DNA of 64,000 nucleotides, taken from positions 244,191 through 308,190 of the forward strand of contig CACOBL010000001.1 of the NCBI GenBank assembly GCA_902625455.1, written 5' to 3'. The notes below the pieces were generated by a model, which was given only the letters and a program-made list of their open reading frames with translations, did not search any database and was not told the DNA's origin. The position numbers and the translations under genes are program-made. Source of the stretch: an uncultured Candidatus Actinomarina sp. (GTDB lineage Bacteria; Actinomycetota; Acidimicrobiia; Actinomarinales; Actinomarinaceae). Below, in pieces: positions 9,376 to 58,772 of this stretch; the stretch's first letter is position 1; each line of letters starts with the position of its first letter.

Positions 9376-9376
9376 A

Positions 9377-9676
9377 ATGTCAGAAGAACATATTAACCAC
9401 CCTACTCCAAAACGCTATGTACAAATTGCAATTATTCTTGGTGTTTTAACGGCAATTGAAATTGCACTTTACTATACAGAAGATCTTGTTGGAGCCTTCA
9501 CGGCCCCACTTTTAATAATCCTTGCTGTAGGAAAATTTGTAATTGTTGTTGGATGGTTCATGCATTTAAGGTTTGAGAGTAAAATGGTAAATAGATTTTT
9601 TGCTGGAGGAATGATTTTAGCTTTAATCTTATTTGCCATAGTAATGATTGAACGAGCATCGGCTAATTTTTCCTAA
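9377..9676 (+). CDS. ctaF: Cytochrome c oxidase subunit IV (Bacillus CtaF-type)
   Basis: 99 aa, 3 TM, immediately after ctaE. Family assignment from size, position and hydropathy. Confidence 0.6.
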   Translation: MSEEHINHPTPKRYVQIAIILGVLTAIEIALYYTEDLVGAFTAPLLIILAVGKFVIVVGWFMHLRFESKMVNRFFAGGMILALILFAIVMIERASANFS

Positions 9677-9679
9677 ATC

Positions 9680-13735: not shown

Positions 13736-13959
13736 TTACCTAAAAAGTCTATTACGCTTTCCCAGCCTTTGGAAACTCCTTTATAAAACTCCGTATAAGT
13801 ACAGTTTGAACACGTCACAGCTATGAATTTTCTATTTTGTATATTCATAAATCTTGACCAAGACTTACCAGTCATTGTCACTGTATCTTCAGAATATTCA
13901 GTCGATTCACATTTAGGACATACCCATATTTTTTTTTGTGTTGGATATCTTTCTTCCAT
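13732..13959 (-). CDS. Small predicted zinc-ribbon protein
   Basis: 75 aa with two CxxC pairs (CPKC ... CSNC) separated by about 40 aa. No firm family. Confidence 0.4.
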   Translation of the reverse strand: MEERYPTQKKIWVCPKCESTEYSEDTVTMTGKSWSRFMNIQNRKFIAVTCSNCTYTEFYKGVSKGWESVIDFLGN

Positions 13960-14019
13960 ACTTAAATACTAATTATTTTTTTAAATGGAATCTGCATTTA
14001 TAGAAAGGTAAAATTTAAT

Positions 14020-21296: not shown

Positions 21297-22209
21297 TTAA
21301 AAAGCTATTAATCTCATCTAATAGTTCATCTGCGTGTGTCCACGGAACAGAGTGACCAGCGTCATTAATAACTTTTGACTTAACAGTATTTAAGCGACTT
21401 ATAACCTCACTAGATGTTTCTTCAGGAACTAATTTATCTTTACCACCAGTTATTACAAGCGTGTCAGAGTTTATTTCATGAATCCAAGGTCTTGCATCGT
21501 AAGGTACAACAAACCTTCCTCCATCACCATATATAAAATCATCTTTCGACCTATGTAGATTGTTCCAAGCCCACTCCGTATACTCATCTTCAATAGATTG
21601 GGATTTCCTTAAGAAAGAAAATTTTGATTTAGGATTAAAATTTGGAAAGAGTCTTTCCCGAATTCTTACAAAACTTATAAATATCTTAAATGCGATCTTA
21701 TCACTATAAACAGCACCACCTAACCAACTAAATGGGGTTATTAAAACTAATTTTCTAATCAAAGATTGTTTTTTTCTTGCAACGGACATGCCAACAGCAC
21801 TTCCCATCGACCAGCCAACAATATCACACTCTTCTATATCAAGTTTTTCTAAAATACTTATAACTAAATCTGCATTCTCGTCTACATCCCATCTTTTCCA
21901 ACTTGAATCTGATTTTCCGTGATTTCTTAAATCAATTGCAACAAATGAGTTTTTATTTTTAATTTTAGGCAAAATTTTAAACCAACTGCCTAACGAATCT
22001 GATCCCCAGCTATGTAAGAAAACGATTGGAACTGTTCCTTCGACATATGACTCTCTAATGAAATACTCTTTCTCTCTTATAAAAATAGTTCTTCCAGGAA
22101 ACTTACTTGGATGAATTTGAGTATTGCCAGTAACATCACCTTTTTTTGTTTCAAGCAAATTCTTTAAAATTGTTGCAAAAGCAAAAAATTTAGTAATTGT
22201 TTTTATCAT
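21286..22209 (-). CDS. Alpha/beta hydrolase fold protein
   Basis: HG oxyanion motif (VFLHSWGSD), nucleophile elbow GWSMG, and a distal Asp/His. Confidence 0.75.
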   Translation of the reverse strand: MIKTITKFFAFATILKNLLETKKGDVTGNTQIHPSKFPGRTIFIREKEYFIRESYVEGTVPIVFLHSWGSDSLGSWFKILPKIKNKNSFVAIDLRNHGKSDSSWKRWDVDENADLVISILEKLDIEECDIVGWSMGSAVGMSVARKKQSLIRKLVLITPFSWLGGAVYSDKIAFKIFISFVRIRERLFPNFNPKSKFSFLRKSQSIEDEYTEWAWNNLHRSKDDFIYGDGGRFVVPYDARPWIHEINSDTLVITGGKDKLVPEETSSEVISRLNTVKSKVINDAGHSVPWTHADELLDEINSFLNDE

Positions 22210-23246
22210 TTGTTGTTAATGATATTGACTTTATTTTTATATCTAGAAACAATATCTCCAATTTCCCATAGATTTATTCCAAATCTATTTGATATATCTT
22301 TGACATTTATTGAATTATCACTTGGTGCTGAAATTAATAATCCACCGCTTGTTTGAGCATCTGATAAAATTTTTACAAAAGATTCCTGATCAGAGTTGTA
22401 AATTATATTTTCTTTAGCTAAATCAAAATTTCTTATAGAGCCTGAAGGATAAATTCCATTGTTAAAATATTCATTTGCGTATTTAATAACAGGTACTTCA
22501 TCTTGGTATATATTTACTGTTACATTGGAATCTCCAATCATTTCTATTAAGTGCCCCAACAGTCCAAAACCTGTGACATCTGTTATAGCATTTGCGTTTA
22601 ATTGTTTGGCAGCTTCAAGTGCTTTGTCATTCAATGTTGACATTACTTCGGTTACTTCATATACCGCTTTATCACTTGCTAAATTTTTTTTAATCGCAGA
22701 AGAGATTATTCCAGAACCTAAGGGTTTTGTTAAATAAAGTTTATCGCCTAATTGAAGATTTCTTTTTTTATAGATAACTTCATTAATTATCCCCATTACA
22801 GCAAAACCATACTTAGGCTCTTTATCGTCAATACTGTGTCCTCCAATGATATTGCATCCAGCACTTTGCATGATTTCTAAACCACCTTTTAAAACCTCAG
22901 ACAGTATTTCAAAACTTAAATCTTCTCTTGGCCATGAAACAAGTTGTAAGGCAGAAATAGGGGTTCCACCCATTGCATATATATCAGATAATGCGTTAGC
23001 GGCCGCAACTTTTCCCCAATCAAATGGGTTGTCTAATATTGGTGTAAAAAAATCGACTGTCTGAACTATTTTCATTCCATTACCAATGTCAATTACTCCT
23101 CCGTCATCAGGCGAATCTAAACCAACTAATATTTGTGAATTGTCGGAATTATTTTGTTTTTTAAAATGCGTCAGTACCTGAGCAAGCTCTTTTTGAGAGA
23201 GTTTACACGCTCAACCAGCACCATGTGAGTACTCAGTTAACCTCAT
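22206..23246 (-). CDS. selD: Selenide, water dikinase SelD (selenophosphate synthetase), selenocysteine-containing; in-frame UGA at codon 12
   Basis: The track ORF (from MKIVQTVDFFTPILDNPFDWGKVAAANALSDIYAMGG) is the PurM-like SelD core. Reading upstream in the same frame (171 nt = 57 codons by ORF-track anchors) reaches an ATG at ~23246-23244 preceded by the SD AAAGGAGG. It translates as MRLTEYSHGAG-[TGA]-ACKLSQKELAQVLTHF..LVGLDSPDDGGVIDIGNGM. The TGA (complement of plus 23211-23213) sits exactly where SelD has its catalytic Cys/Sec (consensus SHGAG-C/U-GCK). The upstream gene's stop is at 23258, so no other start is available. Confidence 0.75.
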
Positions 23247-27500: not shown

Positions 27501-27529
27501 TTTTTTTTCATTTATTTAAAATCTACTTT

Positions 27530-27847
27530 ATGACTATAACAAAATTTATTTCATACGTTATAAGTGTCTCAATGATAGGAGTAATAATTTGGGCACAAAA
27601 CCAGGTTTCTTTATTTGATTCACCTATTCCAGATTTACCATGGGGCATAGTTTCTCTTGTGGATTTGTACGGAGGATTTATTTTAGTATGCTTATGGATT
27701 GCTTACAAAGAATCTCTATCTTCCACAATAATTTGGACATTTTTTGTTTTAATTTTAGGAAATCTTACTACTGCGATTTATATAATTTACAGCATAAATA
27801 AATCAAAAGGTGATGTAGTAAATTTTTTTATGGGAAAAAATTCTTAG
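27530..27847 (+). CDS. Small 3-TM membrane protein (DUF1475-like)
   Basis: 105 aa and hydrophobic. Motif WGIVSLVDLYGGF. Confidence 0.35.
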   Translation: MTITKFISYVISVSMIGVIIWAQNQVSLFDSPIPDLPWGIVSLVDLYGGFILVCLWIAYKESLSSTIIWTFFVLILGNLTTAIYIIYSINKSKGDVVNFFMGKNS

Positions 27848-30787: not shown

Positions 30788-30892
30788 TGTTTAATGATAT
30801 CAGGTGATTATCAAAATTCTAAATGGACTCTTTTTTAATATTTTTTTATTTTTATTTTGTTTAAATTCAGAATGATGTTATATTTATATCAA

Positions 30893-30914
30893 ATCTAAGT
30901 AAAAACACTTAGAT
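30893..30914. promoter_or_regulatory. Perfect 8-bp inverted repeat ATCTAAGT-N6-ACTTAGAT, candidate HspR (HAIR-like) operator
   Basis: Seen directly in the sequence, about 40 bp upstream of the ATG at 30953. It resembles the HspR-associated inverted repeat CTTGAGT-N7-ACTCAAG. A TATATA -10-like element and the SD GAAAGG follow. Confidence 0.45.
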
Positions 30915-30952
30915 TATATATATTAATTTGATAAGATTAGAAAGGTAAAAAA

Positions 30953-31153
30953 ATGAGTGGATCATTAACTGCATCACAAGTTAAGCCGGGTATACGAAGG
31001 TCGAAAAAATACACATCTGGTCGAGTTTGCGCATTTGATACTTGTGAAACTGTTATCAGCGTTTATAACAAAAAGAAGTTTTGTTTTCTGCATGCTCCTA
31101 TCTCCTATCCGAGAGTAAGAGGGCACTTGGCAAGAGAACAAGAACCGACTTAA
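30953..31153 (+). CDS. Small basic CCCH protein (paralog A), first gene of the dnaK locus
   Basis: 66 aa with motif GRVC-x4-C-x12-C-F-x-HAP-x-YPRVRG. About 55% identical to the ORF at 56205..56399. Own SD. 27 nt upstream of dnaK. Confidence 0.6.
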   Translation: MSGSLTASQVKPGIRRSKKYTSGRVCAFDTCETVISVYNKKKFCFLHAPISYPRVRGHLAREQEPT

Positions 31154-31180
31154 TAATTTTTACGAAAGGAAACATTAATA

Positions 31181-53236: not shown

Positions 53237-53971
53237 CTAATTTATATTTCTTAATATCACATATAAGCCAGAAAAAATAGAAAAATAAGTCACTGACAGA
53301 GACAGGAAATTCTGAGAAACTTTAGAAAAAATTGAGCTTGATAATTTAATACCTAAAAAAACAAATGGAATATTGATCAAAAATAAATAAATGTGATCTA
53401 TGTAGATTCTTCCGGTAAAGACGAGTAAAGACAAGGTAATTAGTATTCCAATTATAAAAACACTATTTAATGATGGTCTAAATTCGTCAGGATCAGTATC
53501 TCGATACAAAAGAGCAATTGGAGGACCCCCTATTGCAGCAATCATTCCAAAAATTCCAGAAAATGTACCTGCTATGAAAGAATTAGTTTTGTTTCTTTTA
53601 ATTACCCATCCAAAAAAAGAAGCTAGTCCAGCTAAAAAAACTATTAGACCTACAGAAATAGAAAGATATTTTTCATTTAATATTGATAAAAAAAGCAAAC
53701 CAATTGGTCCTCCAACAAACCTGCCTGCAACTAAAGGTTTAACTGAACTTAAATTAACTTTATTTCTTTCTCTTATAAATACACGAATTGCTAATGGTAA
53801 GCCTAGTAGTGATAAGAGTTGAGGAACCAGTAGTGGCTCAATCTGTACAACTATGGGTGATGCTATAACAGCAAAACCAAATCCTAGAATGCCTTGAACA
53901 GATGATCCTACAAAGATTAATAAAGCAATGAAGATTAATTCAAAAAGGGTTAGATCAAAAGGTAGACTCAA
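53237..53971 (-). CDS. TauE/SafE (DUF81) family anion exporter
   Basis: Typical DUF81 N-terminus GFGFAVIASPIV and an internal repeat. Confidence 0.7.
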   Translation of the reverse strand: MSLPFDLTLFELIFIALLIFVGSSVQGILGFGFAVIASPIVVQIEPLLVPQLLSLLGLPLAIRVFIRERNKVNLSSVKPLVAGRFVGGPIGLLFLSILNEKYLSISVGLIVFLAGLASFFGWVIKRNKTNSFIAGTFSGIFGMIAAIGGPPIALLYRDTDPDEFRPSLNSVFIIGILITLSLLVFTGRIYIDHIYLFLINIPFVFLGIKLSSSIFSKVSQNFLSLSVTYFSIFSGLYVILRNIN

Positions 53972-54204
53972 TCAAGCGCTTCTTCTATGAGCTTAAGAAT
54001 CTCACCATCCTCAGTATGTCTACCTAATTCTTTCTTTGAAAATAATAATTCATCATTCAAGTGAAACTCGAACACACCACCACCACTTGGAATCAAATTA
54101 ATCGATGTTACTTTGTTTCCATAAATTTCTAAGATGTCTTCTATCGTACTAACTGCACGAGGTGTGTAGTTTCAGACTACACAAAACTCTAATTTTATTT
54201 CCAT
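53956..54204 (-). CDS. SelW/Rdx-family selenoprotein (CxxU) with in-frame UGA; not in ORF track
   Basis: Minus-strand ATG at ~54204 translates MEIKLEFCVV-[TGA at ~54174-54172]-NYTPRAVSTIEDILEIYGNKVTSINLIPSGGGVFEFHLNDELLFSKKELGRHTEDGEILKLIEEALD... This matches the Rdx/SelW consensus (IeYC-x-x-C/U ... L.PgsgGvFEv..dgelifSK.e.grfPe). The 3' end overlaps the tauE start by a few codons, and the exact stop is uncertain to +/-3 nt. Confidence 0.7.
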
Positions 54205-54240
54205 AATTTAATAGTATCATAACTTAGATTAAGGAGGTTT

Positions 54241-56139
54241 ATGTTTAACTATTCCGAGGCAAACTTAGATAGTTTGAATAATGATTTAGATAGCACTTTA
54301 GAAGAATGTAAAAAATTAGTTAGAAATATTAAATCGTCAACGAACATCAATTTAAGCGATTTTGATGAATTAGAAAGTACAGTTTATGATGTTTCAGGAA
54401 GAGTTGCTTTTCTTGGAGATGTACACCCTGAAGAAAAAATCAGAGACTTTGGAAATGAAGCAGATTCTAAAATACAAAATTTTGCACTTGAAATATTTAA
54501 TGATGATGATCTTTACAAAAAATATAATGAAATTGATATTTCAGATGCAGATAAAGAAAGTATTGAGTTTCACAAAGATTTAGGTATAGATTTTAAAAAT
54601 GCTGGTCATGGTCTGTCAGATAAAAGTAGAAATAGGTTAATAGAAATTGATAAGAGGCTTATAAAGCTTGGTATTGATTTTTCAGAGAATATAGCAAAAG
54701 ATAAAACAGAGCTTAAATTTTCAGAAGTTGAATTAAGCGGTTTAAGCAAAAATGAACTTAACAACTTAAAAAAAGATGGGGAGAAATTTATTATTACAAT
54801 GGCATATCCTGATGTCAATGCAATATCTGAGAATTGTAATGTCAGGAGCACAAGAGAAATAGTTTGGAAAGCTTTTAATAATCGGGCTGTAGAAGATAAT
54901 ATTCCAATCCTTAAAGAGGCTGTTTTGCTAAGAAATGAAAAATCTAAATTGTTTGGATTTGAAACGTGGGCTGAATATAGATTGCAAAACAGAATGGCAA
55001 AAAATCCAAAAAATGTTGACGCTATGTATAAAGATTTAATTCCTAAGGTGCAAAAAGCTGCTGAGAAAGAAAAGAAAGACCTTGTGACAGATGATATTAA
55101 AATTACTGACATATCACCGTGGGATATTCGATACTTTATTTCATCAGAAAGAAGCAAAACAAGCAATATAAAAAATAGTGAATTAAAAAAATATTTTTTT
55201 ATTCATGATGTAAAAAACGAGATGTTCAAAGTTTGTGAAGAAGTTTTTGATTTAGAAATTAAGCCAGAATCAAATCAAACTGCATGGCATGAAGATGTTG
55301 AACTTTGGTCTTTATGGGAAAAAAATGGTGAGCAACTTGCTTACTTTTATTTAGATCTCTATCCGAGAGAAGGAAAGTTTACTCATGCAGCAGTATTTGA
55401 CATCTCTTCTGGTGGATCTGAAAGACAAAAGCTACCTGTGTGTTCAATGGTCGCAAACTTTCCAAATCCTAATACAGGAGATGGTTTAATGACTTTTGAT
55501 GAAGTTGAGACATTGTTTCATGAATTTGGTCACGTCTTGCATAACGGAATTGGTAAATCGAAATATACCAGATTTGTTGGTGCAAGTTGTGAGTGGGACT
55601 TTGTGGAGGCGCCTAGTCAAATTATGGAACACTGGGTTTGGAAAGTGGAGTGCTTAAAAAGAATTTCAAAACATATTGAAACTTCAGAACCATTATCTGA
55701 ACAACTATGTGAAAGACTAAATGAGTCTAAAAATATTGGTGTTAGTTTATTGACACTAAGACAAATATCTTTTGGGCTTGCCGATCAACACATGCATGGT
55801 AAAAATTTCAATGATGACCTTTTAGAAATAGAACAAACTTCTCAAAAGGTAACTAACATCACCTACCCTAAAGACACAAATCATTTGGCAGCATTTGGCC
55901 ATTTACTAGGTGGATATGATGCTGCTTACTATGGATACTTATGGGCTGAAATTATTGGTGATGACTTGTTTAGTAGATTTGAAGATGAAGGAGTGCTTTC
56001 GAATTCGGTTGGTGTTGACTATAAAAATAAAATTCTCAAGCCTGGAGGTGCTATATCCGCAGAAAATATGGTTCAAAGCTTCTTAGGTAGAAAATGGAAT
56101 GATAAAGCTTTTTTATTTCAAAAGAACTTGCTTATTTAA
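54241..56139 (+). CDS. M3-family zinc metallopeptidase (oligopeptidase / Dcp-like)
   Basis: HEFGH (FHEFGHVLHNG) plus downstream E. M3 thimet/neurolysin fold length. SD AAGGAGG. Confidence 0.8.
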   Translation: MFNYSEANLDSLNNDLDSTLEECKKLVRNIKSSTNINLSDFDELESTVYDVSGRVAFLGDVHPEEKIRDFGNEADSKIQNFALEIFNDDDLYKKYNEIDISDADKESIEFHKDLGIDFKNAGHGLSDKSRNRLIEIDKRLIKLGIDFSENIAKDKTELKFSEVELSGLSKNELNNLKKDGEKFIITMAYPDVNAISENCNVRSTREIVWKAFNNRAVEDNIPILKEAVLLRNEKSKLFGFETWAEYRLQNRMAKNPKNVDAMYKDLIPKVQKAAEKEKKDLVTDDIKITDISPWDIRYFISSERSKTSNIKNSELKKYFFIHDVKNEMFKVCEEVFDLEIKPESNQTAWHEDVELWSLWEKNGEQLAYFYLDLYPREGKFTHAAVFDISSGGSERQKLPVCSMVANFPNPNTGDGLMTFDEVETLFHEFGHVLHNGIGKSKYTRFVGASCEWDFVEAPSQIMEHWVWKVECLKRISKHIETSEPLSEQLCERLNESKNIGVSLLTLRQISFGLADQHMHGKNFNDDLLEIEQTSQKVTNITYPKDTNHLAAFGHLLGGYDAAYYGYLWAEIIGDDLFSRFEDEGVLSNSVGVDYKNKILKPGGAISAENMVQSFLGRKWNDKAFLFQKNLLI

Positions 56140-56204: not shown

Positions 56205-56399
56205 ATGACAGACGGATTAAAAGCGAGTCAAATTAAGGGTGGAATTAGACCTTCAAAGAGTTTTGACCAGGGCAGAGTATGTAAAGATGAAACTTGCACT
56301 ACTCAATTAAGTATTTACAACAAAAGAGATCATTGTTTTAATCATGCTCCGGTTAAATATCCGAGAGTAAGAGGCAGAATCCTTCAAGAAACTGCTTAA
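56205..56399 (+). CDS. Small basic CCCH protein (paralog B), head of the copZ-copA locus
   Basis: 64 aa. Same GRVC-x4-C-x12-C-F-x-HAP-x-YPRVRG architecture as 30953..31153. Confidence 0.6.
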   Translation: MTDGLKASQIKGGIRPSKSFDQGRVCKDETCTTQLSIYNKRDHCFNHAPVKYPRVRGRILQETA

Positions 56400-56475: not shown

Positions 56476-56503
56476 AGCCTATTAAGTATTATTATTGTTA
56501 ATT

Positions 56504-56713
56504 ATGAATGTTGTATTTACAGTTCCTGAAATCAGTTGTGGTCATTGCAAGGATACAATTGAATCTACATTAGACAATGTCGACTCTATAGAAAGTGTTT
56601 CGGTTGATATTGAGAAGAAATCTGTTGAGGTTGTCTCATCTGCTGATTTAGATATGATAAATGTTTCTCAACTGTTAGATGAACAAGGCTACACAGTTGT
56701 CCAATCAGAATAA
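56504..56713 (+). CDS. copZ: Copper chaperone CopZ (HMA domain)
   Basis: M-x-C-x-x-C type motif (SCGHCK) in a ~70-aa ferredoxin-like HMA fold. The track's TTG start at 56495 was replaced by the ATG. Confidence 0.75.
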   Translation: MNVVFTVPEISCGHCKDTIESTLDNVDSIESVSVDIEKKSVEVVSSADLDMINVSQLLDEQGYTVVQSE

Positions 56714-58772
56714 GACTTTAAATTTAGACATTGAGGGCATGACATGTGCTGCATGTGCTGCGCGCATTGAACGAGTAATTTCAAAAGACCAAGACGTTTT
56801 AGATGTTTCTGTAAGCTTTCCTCTAAAGTCTGCAATTGTTGATATTAACGATGACGATAGTTTTGATGTTAATAATTTAATTAAAAAAGTAAACAACATT
56901 GGTTATAAAGCTAAAGAGACAGACAGTCTTGGCTCAAGTAAAAATGTTAAGTTTAAATTTGTAATGCCTTTCTTGTCACTATTTTTAACTTATATTCTCA
57001 GGTTCACATTTGAAGCTGGGCTTGATCTATTATCTTATTCGATAGGCTCTTTTGTTATATTGCTATTGGGCAGAAATTTTCATATTTCAGCTTTTAAAAA
57101 AATTAAATACCTTGACTTTAATATGGATACATTAATTTCAATTGGTAGCTTGAGTGCTCTTGCTATTTCATTACTACCAAGTAATGTTCTAGGTTCAGAC
57201 ATATCGATTGCAAATAATAAAATGTTCTTAGATACTGGTGCTTTTATAGTTTCATTTATATTAATTGGTAAAGCAATAGAAGATAAGGTTATAGAGGAAT
57301 CTGTAAATGAATCTGAATCTATAAAAACCAGAATGCCCAAAACATTAATTGTTGAAAGAGATGGACAAAATCTAGAAGTACCCATTAAAGAAGTTACAGT
57401 AGGTGATTTGTTTCTAGTAAGCCCTGGGCAGATTATTCCAGTTGATGGTGCTGTTTTAGATGGTTCTACAACTGTTGATGAAAGCTTATTGACTGGAGAA
57501 TCAATTCCTCTAGTAAAAAATCCTCAAGACTCAGTAGTTGGTGGAAGTATTAATTTAGATGGTGCAATAAAGGTTTCTGTGCAAGAGTCTTATCAGAAAT
57601 CTACTTACAATGTAATTGAAGAATTAATTAGAACAGCTCAAGCAACTAAACCGGAAATTCAAAAATCATTAGACAAAGTTACTCAATACTTTGTTCCAGT
57701 TGTTCTTTTGATTAGTGTTCTGACTTTTCTGTTTAGATTTTATGTAAGTGACTACGCATTGTTAGACGCCTTAAAAAATTCAATAGCAGTACTTGTAATT
57801 GCGTGCCCTTGTGCATTAGGTCTAGCAACCCCTATAGTTTTATTTAAAACTGCAACACTAAGTAAAAAAGATGGGTATTTATTCAAAAATTTTGATATTT
57901 TACAAAGATTTGGTGATATAAATACGCTCATCTTTGATAAAACGGGAACACTGTCATCTGGTATTTTTAAGATATCAAAAATTGAAGACAATTATACAAA
58001 TTTAACTGAGAGCGAAATTTTACAATTAATTGCAAGTCTTGAAAACTATTCTCAGCACCCAATAGCAAGAAGTATTGTTTATGAAGCAGAATTACAAGAC
58101 TTGGAGTTACTTAAAGCTGATAATGTTAAAGAAGTTCCGGGGTTAGGAATACAAGGAAAAGTAAATAATAGAAAAATTATTATTGAAAAAAACATAGAGT
58201 CGCAAGAGTCTTCGTTGATTATTAAAATTGATGAACAAAAACTTTATCTCTACATAGAAGAAGAAGTATCTGTATCATCAAACTTCTTTGAGAAATTAAA
58301 AGGTGAAAAAGAAATAATTATTCTTTCTGGAGATAAAGAAATTAATGTTGAAAGGTTTGCTAAAAGTATTGGGGTCAAAAAATATCATTCAAATAAATCT
58401 CCAGAAGAAAAATTAGAATTTATAAAGAACAAACAAAAAAATGAAAAAGTTATATATGTTGGTGATGGAGTAAATGATTCCCCTTCAATCAAGCAAGCAG
58501 ATGTTGGAGTAACAACCTCTAGTAGTAGTCAAATAGCACAAGTAGCTGGAGATATTCTAATTCACAAGGGCGGTTTAGATACAATATCTGAAATTTTTAA
58601 ATTATCAAAAAAATCTAAAAGCCGAATCTATCAAAACCTATTTCTTGCTTTTGTTTACAACACTTCAATGATTCCATTAGCTGTGTCCGGGGCAATTACT
58701 CCAAACTTAGCAGCTTTAGCAATGGCCTTATCAAGCATTTCTGTAGTGTTAAATTCATCAAGAAAACTATAG
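56679..58772 (+). CDS. copA: Copper-translocating P1B-type ATPase
   Basis: N-terminal HMA GMTCAACAARIE, TM6 CPC (ACPCALGLATP), DKTGTLS, GDGVNDSP. Confidence 0.9.
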   Translation: MNKATQLSNQNKTLNLDIEGMTCAACAARIERVISKDQDVLDVSVSFPLKSAIVDINDDDSFDVNNLIKKVNNIGYKAKETDSLGSSKNVKFKFVMPFLSLFLTYILRFTFEAGLDLLSYSIGSFVILLLGRNFHISAFKKIKYLDFNMDTLISIGSLSALAISLLPSNVLGSDISIANNKMFLDTGAFIVSFILIGKAIEDKVIEESVNESESIKTRMPKTLIVERDGQNLEVPIKEVTVGDLFLVSPGQIIPVDGAVLDGSTTVDESLLTGESIPLVKNPQDSVVGGSINLDGAIKVSVQESYQKSTYNVIEELIRTAQATKPEIQKSLDKVTQYFVPVVLLISVLTFLFRFYVSDYALLDALKNSIAVLVIACPCALGLATPIVLFKTATLSKKDGYLFKNFDILQRFGDINTLIFDKTGTLSSGIFKISKIEDNYTNLTESEILQLIASLENYSQHPIARSIVYEAELQDLELLKADNVKEVPGLGIQGKVNNRKIIIEKNIESQESSLIIKIDEQKLYLYIEEEVSVSSNFFEKLKGEKEIIILSGDKEINVERFAKSIGVKKYHSNKSPEEKLEFIKNKQKNEKVIYVGDGVNDSPSIKQADVGVTTSSSSQIAQVAGDILIHKGGLDTISEIFKLSKKSKSRIYQNLFLAFVYNTSMIPLAVSGAITPNLAALAMALSSISVVLNSSRKL

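Follow-up and report, generated by a model that had tools for sequence, protein, structure and literature searches.

SelW-like proteins are the most abundant family of prokaryotic selenoproteins in the Sargasso Sea, where 48 genes were found (Zhang, Fomenko & Gladyshev, 2005, PMC1088965), and again in the Global Ocean Sampling (GOS) data, where forms with selenocysteine (Sec) outnumber forms with cysteine (Cys) by 427 to 56 and SelD ranks second (Zhang & Gladyshev, 2008, PMC2398784). Here we show that an apparent gap in 64,000 nt of a Candidatus Actinomarina genome (contig CACOBL010000001.1, positions 244,191 to 308,190; the whole of this stretch is hereafter called the window) is a real gene for a small SelW-like redox protein, invisible to ordinary gene callers. 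The product belongs to the SelW-like (Rdx) family, its in-frame UGA is conserved, a hairpin with covariation follows that UGA at an appropriate spacing, and the same window encodes a SelD with Sec; we hold with high confidence that the locus is functional and encodes a small cytoplasmic selenoprotein of this kind. It shares with the proteins of the Sargasso Sea and GOS surveys the family, the CxxU motif, the marine surface habitat and a candidate bacterial Sec insertion sequence (SECIS) directly after the UGA; whereas the survey reads were unassigned to organisms, the present gene can be placed in the Actinomarinales together with its operon context.

The preliminary description of this locus, made from the sequence alone, implied more novelty than is due to a member of the best-known marine bacterial selenoprotein family (PMC1088965; PMC2398784). 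What we report is an annotation gap in a family known since 2005 and not a discovery, and knowledge of selenoproteins is unchanged by it; the additions are modest, namely an organism assignment, the likely identity of a ‘78 aa’ family described in a recent preprint, covariation for a minimal SECIS, and an order-wide coupling to a TSUP transporter gene, the last being the sole functional lead. Ordinary gene callers omit the gene or return a 42-aa stub, and calling with genetic code 4 puts tryptophan (Trp, W) at the active site and appends a junk tail. Actinomarina are among the most abundant surface-ocean bacteria, and their annotation should include the SelW-like gene. Our results suggest Actinomarina as a major source of the reads for SelW-like proteins and SelD that dominate the Sargasso Sea and GOS surveys, and many of the SelW-like reads plausibly came from it.

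The gene and its recoded codon lie as follows.

53968..54204, minus strand: SelW-like (Rdx family) selenoprotein gene, recognized from its translation, family profiles, fold and orthologs
54174..54172, minus strand: in-frame TGA predicted to be read as Sec, codon 11, the U of the C8-V-V-U11 motif

The reading frame opens with an ATG at 54204..54202, runs on the minus strand through 78 codons, the internal TGA included, and closes with a TGA stop at 53970..53968; the codon for Cys8 is TGT (54183..54181, minus strand). Its translation is MEIKLEFCVV-[TGA]-NYTPRAVS… and ends in EEALD before the stop, the part after the internal TGA being NYTPRAVSTIEDILEIYGNKVTSINLIPSGGGVFEFHLNDELLFSKKELGRHTEDGEILKLIEEALD. 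The motifs IKLEFCVV-U, LIPSGGGVFEF and ELLFSKKELGRH, which the preliminary description had quoted, are all found there, but the 80 aa that it gave become 78 residues with Sec counted, and its left edge at 53956 lay 12 nt past the stop, the real end being 53968. The space between the long open reading frames (ORFs) extends over 53972..54240 in a window that is 93.6% coding, and its neighbours are a TauE-family gene (53237..53971, minus strand) and an M3 peptidase gene (54241..56139, plus strand). The placement between tauE and the peptidase had thus been right, the gap of about 270 bp being exactly 269 bp long. The gap had further been said to hold no listed ORF owing to an in-frame TGA after 10 codons; the TGA is there, but the six-frame ORF list does show a remnant, a 42-aa TTG-started tail of the gene (53968..54096), which is all of the gene that the list contains.

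Family membership was examined with Sec entered as Cys. Read through the TGA, the product scores 60.4 bits on the Rdx profile PF10262 (E = 2e-16; cut-off 22.6), covering profile positions 2–73 of 74, as the earlier reading of the sequence had anticipated, and it also passes TIGR02174 (CXXU_selWTH) with 49.7 bits against a cut-off of 34.2 (profile positions 1–73 of 74). The fragment after the TGA reaches 28.5 bits on Rdx by itself, again above 22.6, so that a failure of the downstream frame at this threshold can be set aside; since the full read-through product scores 60.4 bits, the part before and around the TGA adds about 32 bits, roughly half of the signal. The equivalog NF041051 (SelTWH_Campy) was not reached (77.9 bits against a cut-off of 88), and the protein is related to this Campylobacter-type equivalog without being a member of it. 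The best sequence matches in the Protein Data Bank (PDB) are Cys-containing bacterial Rdx proteins (3DEX, 2FA8, 2OJL and 2P0G). The CTQC of 3DEX, 2FA8 and 2OJL aligns to CVV-[TGA], with the TGA opposite the second Cys of CxxC, which bears out the proposal that Sec stands in place of that residue.

The fold agrees with this assignment. An AlphaFold2 model was built on the public ortholog P0001, which is 97% identical to the window protein and carries W at the Sec site; it has a mean confidence (pLDDT) of 88.2 and the order beta-alpha-beta-beta-beta-alpha, and the redox motif C8-V-V-U11 falls between strand E2–8 and helix H14–31. In a Foldseek comparison with the PDB, the top 21 matches are all bacterial SelW-related proteins (including 2FA8, 2OBK and 3DEX; TM 0.79–0.84), superposed with an rmsd of 1.3–1.6 Å over 74–77 residues, and mouse SelW (2NPB) is also among the matches (TM 0.67). 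The solved Cys proteins of the Rdx family (2FA8 Atu0228, 3DEX SAV_2001, 2OJL, 2OKA, 2OBK and 2P0G) thus share the fold and the position of the motif with the window protein, and differ in having CxxC and not CxxU, in their identity to it of only ~17–26%, and in short N- and C-terminal extensions. Mouse SelW likewise has CxxU in a thioredoxin-like beta-alpha-beta-beta-beta-alpha fold, but is ~19% identical and depends on a SECIS in the 3′-UTR with SBP2 and eEFSec. Known partners of mammalian SelW are glutathione and 14-3-3.

That the C-terminal fragment alone passes the Rdx cut-off could be taken to mean that expression is limited to the 42-aa ORF (TTG 54096 to TGA 53968), which would yield a small protein of its own; the ORF is intact, and JGI and TARA annotate fragments of this kind under the name ‘selenoprotein W-related protein’. 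Such a product, however, would be without strand 1, the redox motif and helix 1. The 36 codons upstream are conserved at least as well as the fragment, and the TTG falls within the conserved strand LIPSGGG, where nothing resembles a ribosome-binding site. We give this possibility a very slim chance and retain the full-length, 78-residue product.

For a wider view of the TGA we scanned one genome per species with six search peptides, NYTPRAVS among them, and 76 loci were returned. Thirty-two of them (L001–L032) belong to Candidatus Actinomarina, OCS155 or other Actinomarinales, or are mis-binned contigs with the same gene order; the others (L033–L076) are mostly from Chloroflexota, with a few from Acidimicrobiia, Verrucomicrobiota and Acidobacteriota. 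In 76/76 loci the Sec codon is TGA, with the strand-1/Cys context before it and NYTPRAVS after it. The orthologous regions are therefore coding, which the preliminary description had named as the point to be checked, and Cys occupies the aligned position in the solved homologs. Across the Actinomarinales genes, the ten codons upstream of the TGA show 12 codon variants with only 3 amino-acid changes, and pairwise comparisons of the same codons give 2–5 synonymous against 0–2 non-synonymous differences. Mostly synonymous variation before the TGA is the signature of translation in the SelW-like frame.

These data bear directly on the simplest objection, i.e. that the TGA is a true stop, either in a decaying pseudogene that once encoded a Cys-type Rdx protein (TGT/TGC changed to TGA) or in a locus that makes a short peptide only. 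Standard gene calling does leave the region empty but for the 42-aa remnant, and TGA does serve as a stop elsewhere in the window. A true stop is nevertheless hard to reconcile with the same TGA in all 76 loci over several phyla, or with synonymous substitutions that dominate both upstream and downstream of it, and in genomes as densely coding as these (93.6%) a pseudogene would not retain its frame and start codon together with the CxxU context and a hairpin that covaries. The pattern of conservation effectively refutes this explanation, to which we assign almost no probability, and argues for a gene translated through its TGA.

The window itself contains a second gene that points to Sec.

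22206..23246, minus strand: selD, selenophosphate synthetase, itself a selenoprotein (MRLTEYSHGAG-U-ACK; UGA at 23213..23211)

With U taken as C, this SelD reaches 368.8 bits against TIGR00476, whose cut-off is 125, in a match to profile positions 1–309; it has 346 aa with AIRS and AIRS_C domains. Its UGA and that of the SelW-like gene are 30,961 bp apart, so that the claim of two Sec codons within 31 kb holds, the Sec-containing SelD being real by the TIGR00476 score. No other credible UGA-interrupted gene was found in the window. According to a preprint (‘Actinomarina, resolved’, bioRxiv 10.64898/2026.04.03.716425), selC, selA and selD, together with a divergent selB, occur in each of the 84 complete genomes of Actinomarina. 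In two Verrucomicrobiota loci, L071 and L072, the SelW-like homolog immediately precedes selD and selA; L071 has selB after them too, and its selD, selA and selB all score above the NCBIfam cut-offs. The selD ORFs of both loci probably begin after what is also a Sec codon. As to their hosts, L071 (1493..6378) and L072 (1573..4400) come from Ca. Udaeobacter and a Verrucomicrobiales metagenome-assembled genome. In the window, selD has a good ribosome-binding site (AAAAGGAGGTGAAATG); the sequence past its UGA folds weakly (z = –0.26), with a small CAG-GUA-CUG hairpin 33 nt downstream.

Read-through might still deliver a residue other than Sec, be it Trp (as under a code 4-like assignment), Cys inserted by the Sec machinery at low selenium, or the product of near-cognate suppression. 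Public protein predictions would seem to favour Trp. A search of protein collections gave more than 120 relatives, and the public homologs (P0001–P0098) are of two kinds: the ‘full-length’ ones all have CVVW at the Sec site and a tail of W plus 5–13 junk residues, and the remaining ones are stubs of 42–58 aa; truncated fragments of the gene are labelled ‘selenoprotein W-related protein’ by JGI and TARA. The W, which more than 100 metagenomic homologs show at the Sec site, follows at both sites from gene calling with genetic code 4, by which nearly all of the full-length predictions were made; this means that the DNA has TGA at the Sec site and at the stop. The W is thus an artefact of code 4, and the same predictions run through the gene's own TGA stop into junk. 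Among the 54 long ORFs of the window the stops are TAA in 39, TAG in 9 and TGA in 6, and since TGA ends 6/54 of them the organism uses the standard genetic code, which again speaks against Trp. Other systems are known to insert Cys at Sec codons when selenium is limiting, and selenium is low in the surface ocean; both are points in favour of a residue other than Sec. On the other side, the aligned residue in the solved homologs is the catalytic Cys and not Trp, a selD of the Sec form lies nearby, and the preprint reports selC for all complete genomes of Actinomarina. We regard insertion of a residue other than Sec as highly improbable, and we infer that Sec itself is inserted at codon 11.

The sequence following the UGA contains the element that would direct this insertion, a search 3′ of 54172 having been proposed in the preliminary description; such a hairpin, with covariation, is indeed present there. 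A second, adjacent part of the transcript can also fold.

54144..54160, minus strand: candidate bacterial SECIS hairpin UCGUGC-AGUUA-GUACGA, from folding, covariation and bacterial SECIS (bSECIS) geometry
54163..54183, minus strand: second hairpin of uncertain significance, UGUGUAGU-cUGAa-ACUACACA, whose apical loop holds the Sec codon

The candidate SECIS is 17 nt long, has a 6-bp stem, begins 11 nt past the UGA, and places its loop GU at +22/+23 from the U of UGA. The bSECIS model asks for an apical loop of 3–9 nt, a stem of 4–16 bp, a G within the first two positions of the loop, as a rule with G or U coming next, a UGA-to-loop distance of 16–37 nt and a stability of –7.5 kcal/mol or lower (PMC13188914). 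The hairpin has a 5-nt loop (AGUUA, with G second and then U), the 6-bp stem and a 17-nt spacing, all within the geometry of the model. Its helix is 100% paired in 20 distinct Actinomarinales sequences, in which the closing pair is U-A (12), C-G (7) or G-C (1); the covariation of this pair links a synonymous change in a Pro codon to an Ile/Val/Leu change five codons on. Moreover, one G-U pair becomes G-C in four of these sequences, and when the partner strand is slid by 1–3 columns either way, pairing falls from 95% to 16–54%. In the other phyla the hairpin is offset by ~4 nt (CGUCA-GUU-UGACG) and covaries from C-G to U-A. Since NYTPRAVS is invariant across phyla, a constraint at the RNA level may act there beside the constraint at the protein level. 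The loop motif AGUU recurs in another codon register, as GCA-GUU-A (Ala-Val) in Actinomarinales and GUC-AGU-UUG (Val-Ser-Leu) in Chloroflexota.

Compared with the SECIS of E. coli fdhF and the bSECISearch model, the window hairpin is likewise a stem-loop in the coding sequence after the UGA, with a small loop bearing G and then U. The corresponding loop bases of the fdhF SECIS are G23/U24. The window hairpin is far shorter, its 6 bp including neither a lower stem nor a bulged U; in this AT-rich sequence its stability falls short of the limit of the model, and the second hairpin encloses the UGA itself.

This second hairpin has 8 bp and a 5-nt apical loop; in relatives with GUU it has 9 bp and a 3-nt loop consisting of the UGA. 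Folded together, the two hairpins give –15.5 kcal/mol (z = –2.1). Across Actinomarinales the pairing of the second hairpin amounts to 92%; a single double change, from G-C to A-U, occurs in one clade, and the outer pairs vary uncompensated. In the related loci outside Actinomarinales it is not conserved. The Val-Val and Asn-Tyr-Thr codons may give rise to it as a by-product, and it would be melted once the UGA occupies the A site.

Several results weigh against a Sec-encoding gene with its own SECIS and have to be considered together. First, the use of NYTPRAVS as a search peptide may bias the TGA count outside Actinomarinales towards Sec forms; the 32 close relatives could be found with the other five peptides whatever the codon, so that the bias concerns the distant set. 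Second, neither a tRNA-Sec nor any other tRNA was found by ARAGORN in the 64-kb window or in the 32 related loci, and a Pfam scan of 30 large ORFs of the window gave no selA or selB; for this genome, the case for Sec machinery rests on the Sec-containing SelD and the genus-level preprint. Third, the stability of the candidate SECIS in this 32% G+C genome, –6.6 kcal/mol, is just short of –7.5 kcal/mol. The hairpin of the closest relatives also has –6.6 kcal/mol, and clades with a C-G or G-C closing pair have –8.2 to –8.7 kcal/mol. The folding energy is, in addition, no better than that of shuffled sequences (z = 0.07). Energy alone cannot separate the hairpin from shuffled sequence, and the case for it accordingly rests on conservation and covariation. 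Fourth, Rfam gave nothing at gathering thresholds in the whole window and no match to a SECIS model, and a permissive Rfam search of 53900..54300 gave only chance-level matches to unrelated families. Bacterial SECIS elements are poorly covered in Rfam, and the authors of the preprint likewise report no Rfam SECIS match (10.64898/2026.04.03.716425).

Standard SelB-dependent Sec insertion is the most likely mechanism. A ribosome arriving at the UGA of codon 11 would meet SelB, carrying GTP and Sec-tRNA(Sec) and tethered by the hairpin, and Sec would be inserted instead of termination taking place; translation would then proceed to the second TGA, which has no hairpin after it and would act as a stop. 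In the thioredoxin-like product the Cys8-x-x-Sec11 pair most likely cycles between thiol/selenol and selenenylsulfide, the protein working as a thiol-dependent oxidoreductase. Both the binding of SelB to the candidate SECIS and this redox chemistry are predicted from sequence.

The same preprint describes, as the most widespread predicted selenoprotein of Actinomarina, a ‘78 aa’ family predicted by deep-Sep and called uncharacterized (10.64898/2026.04.03.716425), for which neither a UniRef90 nor a KofamScan hit was obtained (10.64898/2026.04.03.716425). This family is probably the SelW-like gene described here, an identity that we infer from length and ubiquity, not from sequence; our contribution lies in assigning it, by profile and fold, to the Rdx/SelW-like proteins, which ties a deep-learning prediction of 2026 to the SelW-like family. 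The preprint's SelD family is given as ‘MRLT*, 342-346 aa’ (10.64898/2026.04.03.716425), and the SelD of the window, which starts with MRLT and has 346 aa, fits it.

Considering the genomic context, the SelW-like gene is closely joined to the transporter gene that follows it, and its upstream region also carries a conserved element.

53237..53971, minus strand: TauE/SafE (TSUP family) membrane transporter gene, 244 aa (Pfam TauE, 73.7 bits)
53968..53971, minus strand: TTGA overlap of the SelW-like stop TGA with the tauE start TTG, kept in 32/32 Actinomarinales loci
54205..54222, minus strand: extended –10-like element (TGATACTAT), from an upstream alignment of 33 sequences

The gene order SelW-like, tauE, lnt is constant in 32/32 Actinomarinales loci and occurs in none of the others; the linkage to TauE is absent from the 44 loci outside Actinomarinales (tblastn) and, on inspection, from two other Acidimicrobiia loci, and the neighbours outside the order vary. 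The TTGA overlap suggests translational coupling of the two genes, and since the stop of one overlaps the start of the other, coupled translation of a single transcript probably yields both products. In the alignment of 33 sequences a conserved box, TGATA(C/G)TAT, ends at a distance of 7 nt from the SelW-like ATG, upstream of which no Shine–Dalgarno sequence is present; a conserved box without a Shine–Dalgarno sequence suggests a promoter for a leaderless or nearly leaderless mRNA. A promoter-scan match at 54220..54192 is weak and by itself not significant. On the opposite side, the divergent start codons of the SelW-like and M3 peptidase genes are 36 bp apart (54205..54240), and the peptidase gene has a strong ribosome-binding site, AAGGAGG. 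An N-terminal extension of TauE through a UGA, considered as the origin of a selenoprotein group that the preprint assigns to K07090, was rejected, the upstream TauE frame being full of stops.

This third selenoprotein group of the preprint ‘matches K07090’, a TSUP/TauE transporter (10.64898/2026.04.03.716425). The tauE gene of the window is without an in-frame UGA and no N-terminal extension of it is possible; the K07090 group may be the SelW-like ORF, assigned to tauE via the 4-nt same-strand overlap.

A functional link between the SelW-like protein and the transporter may follow from this arrangement. Further readings go beyond a general SelW-like oxidoreductase: the protein might be a dedicated cytoplasmic partner of the TauE/TSUP anion transporter, or, independently, the two hairpins might constitute a lineage-specific recoding module on a leaderless mRNA. 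We consider these proposals rather unlikely. As a partner, the protein could for example reduce, or hand over, a sulfur or selenium oxyanion or a persulfide moved by the transporter, and this would, if true, be the first functional context for bacterial SelW-like proteins.

Finally, two minor features of the window may be recorded. Four non-coding gaps of 280–390 bp (9376..9679, 13736..14019, 27501..27843 and 30788..31180) interrupt a genome that is otherwise 94% coding, and within them no long ORF, tRNA or Rfam match was found. Two small ORFs on the plus strand (56205..56399 and 56495..56713) precede the gene of a copper-type P-type ATPase (56679..58772); one of them encodes a 64-aa protein rich in Cys and His, and the other a 72-aa CopZ-like protein with a CGHC heavy-metal-associated motif.

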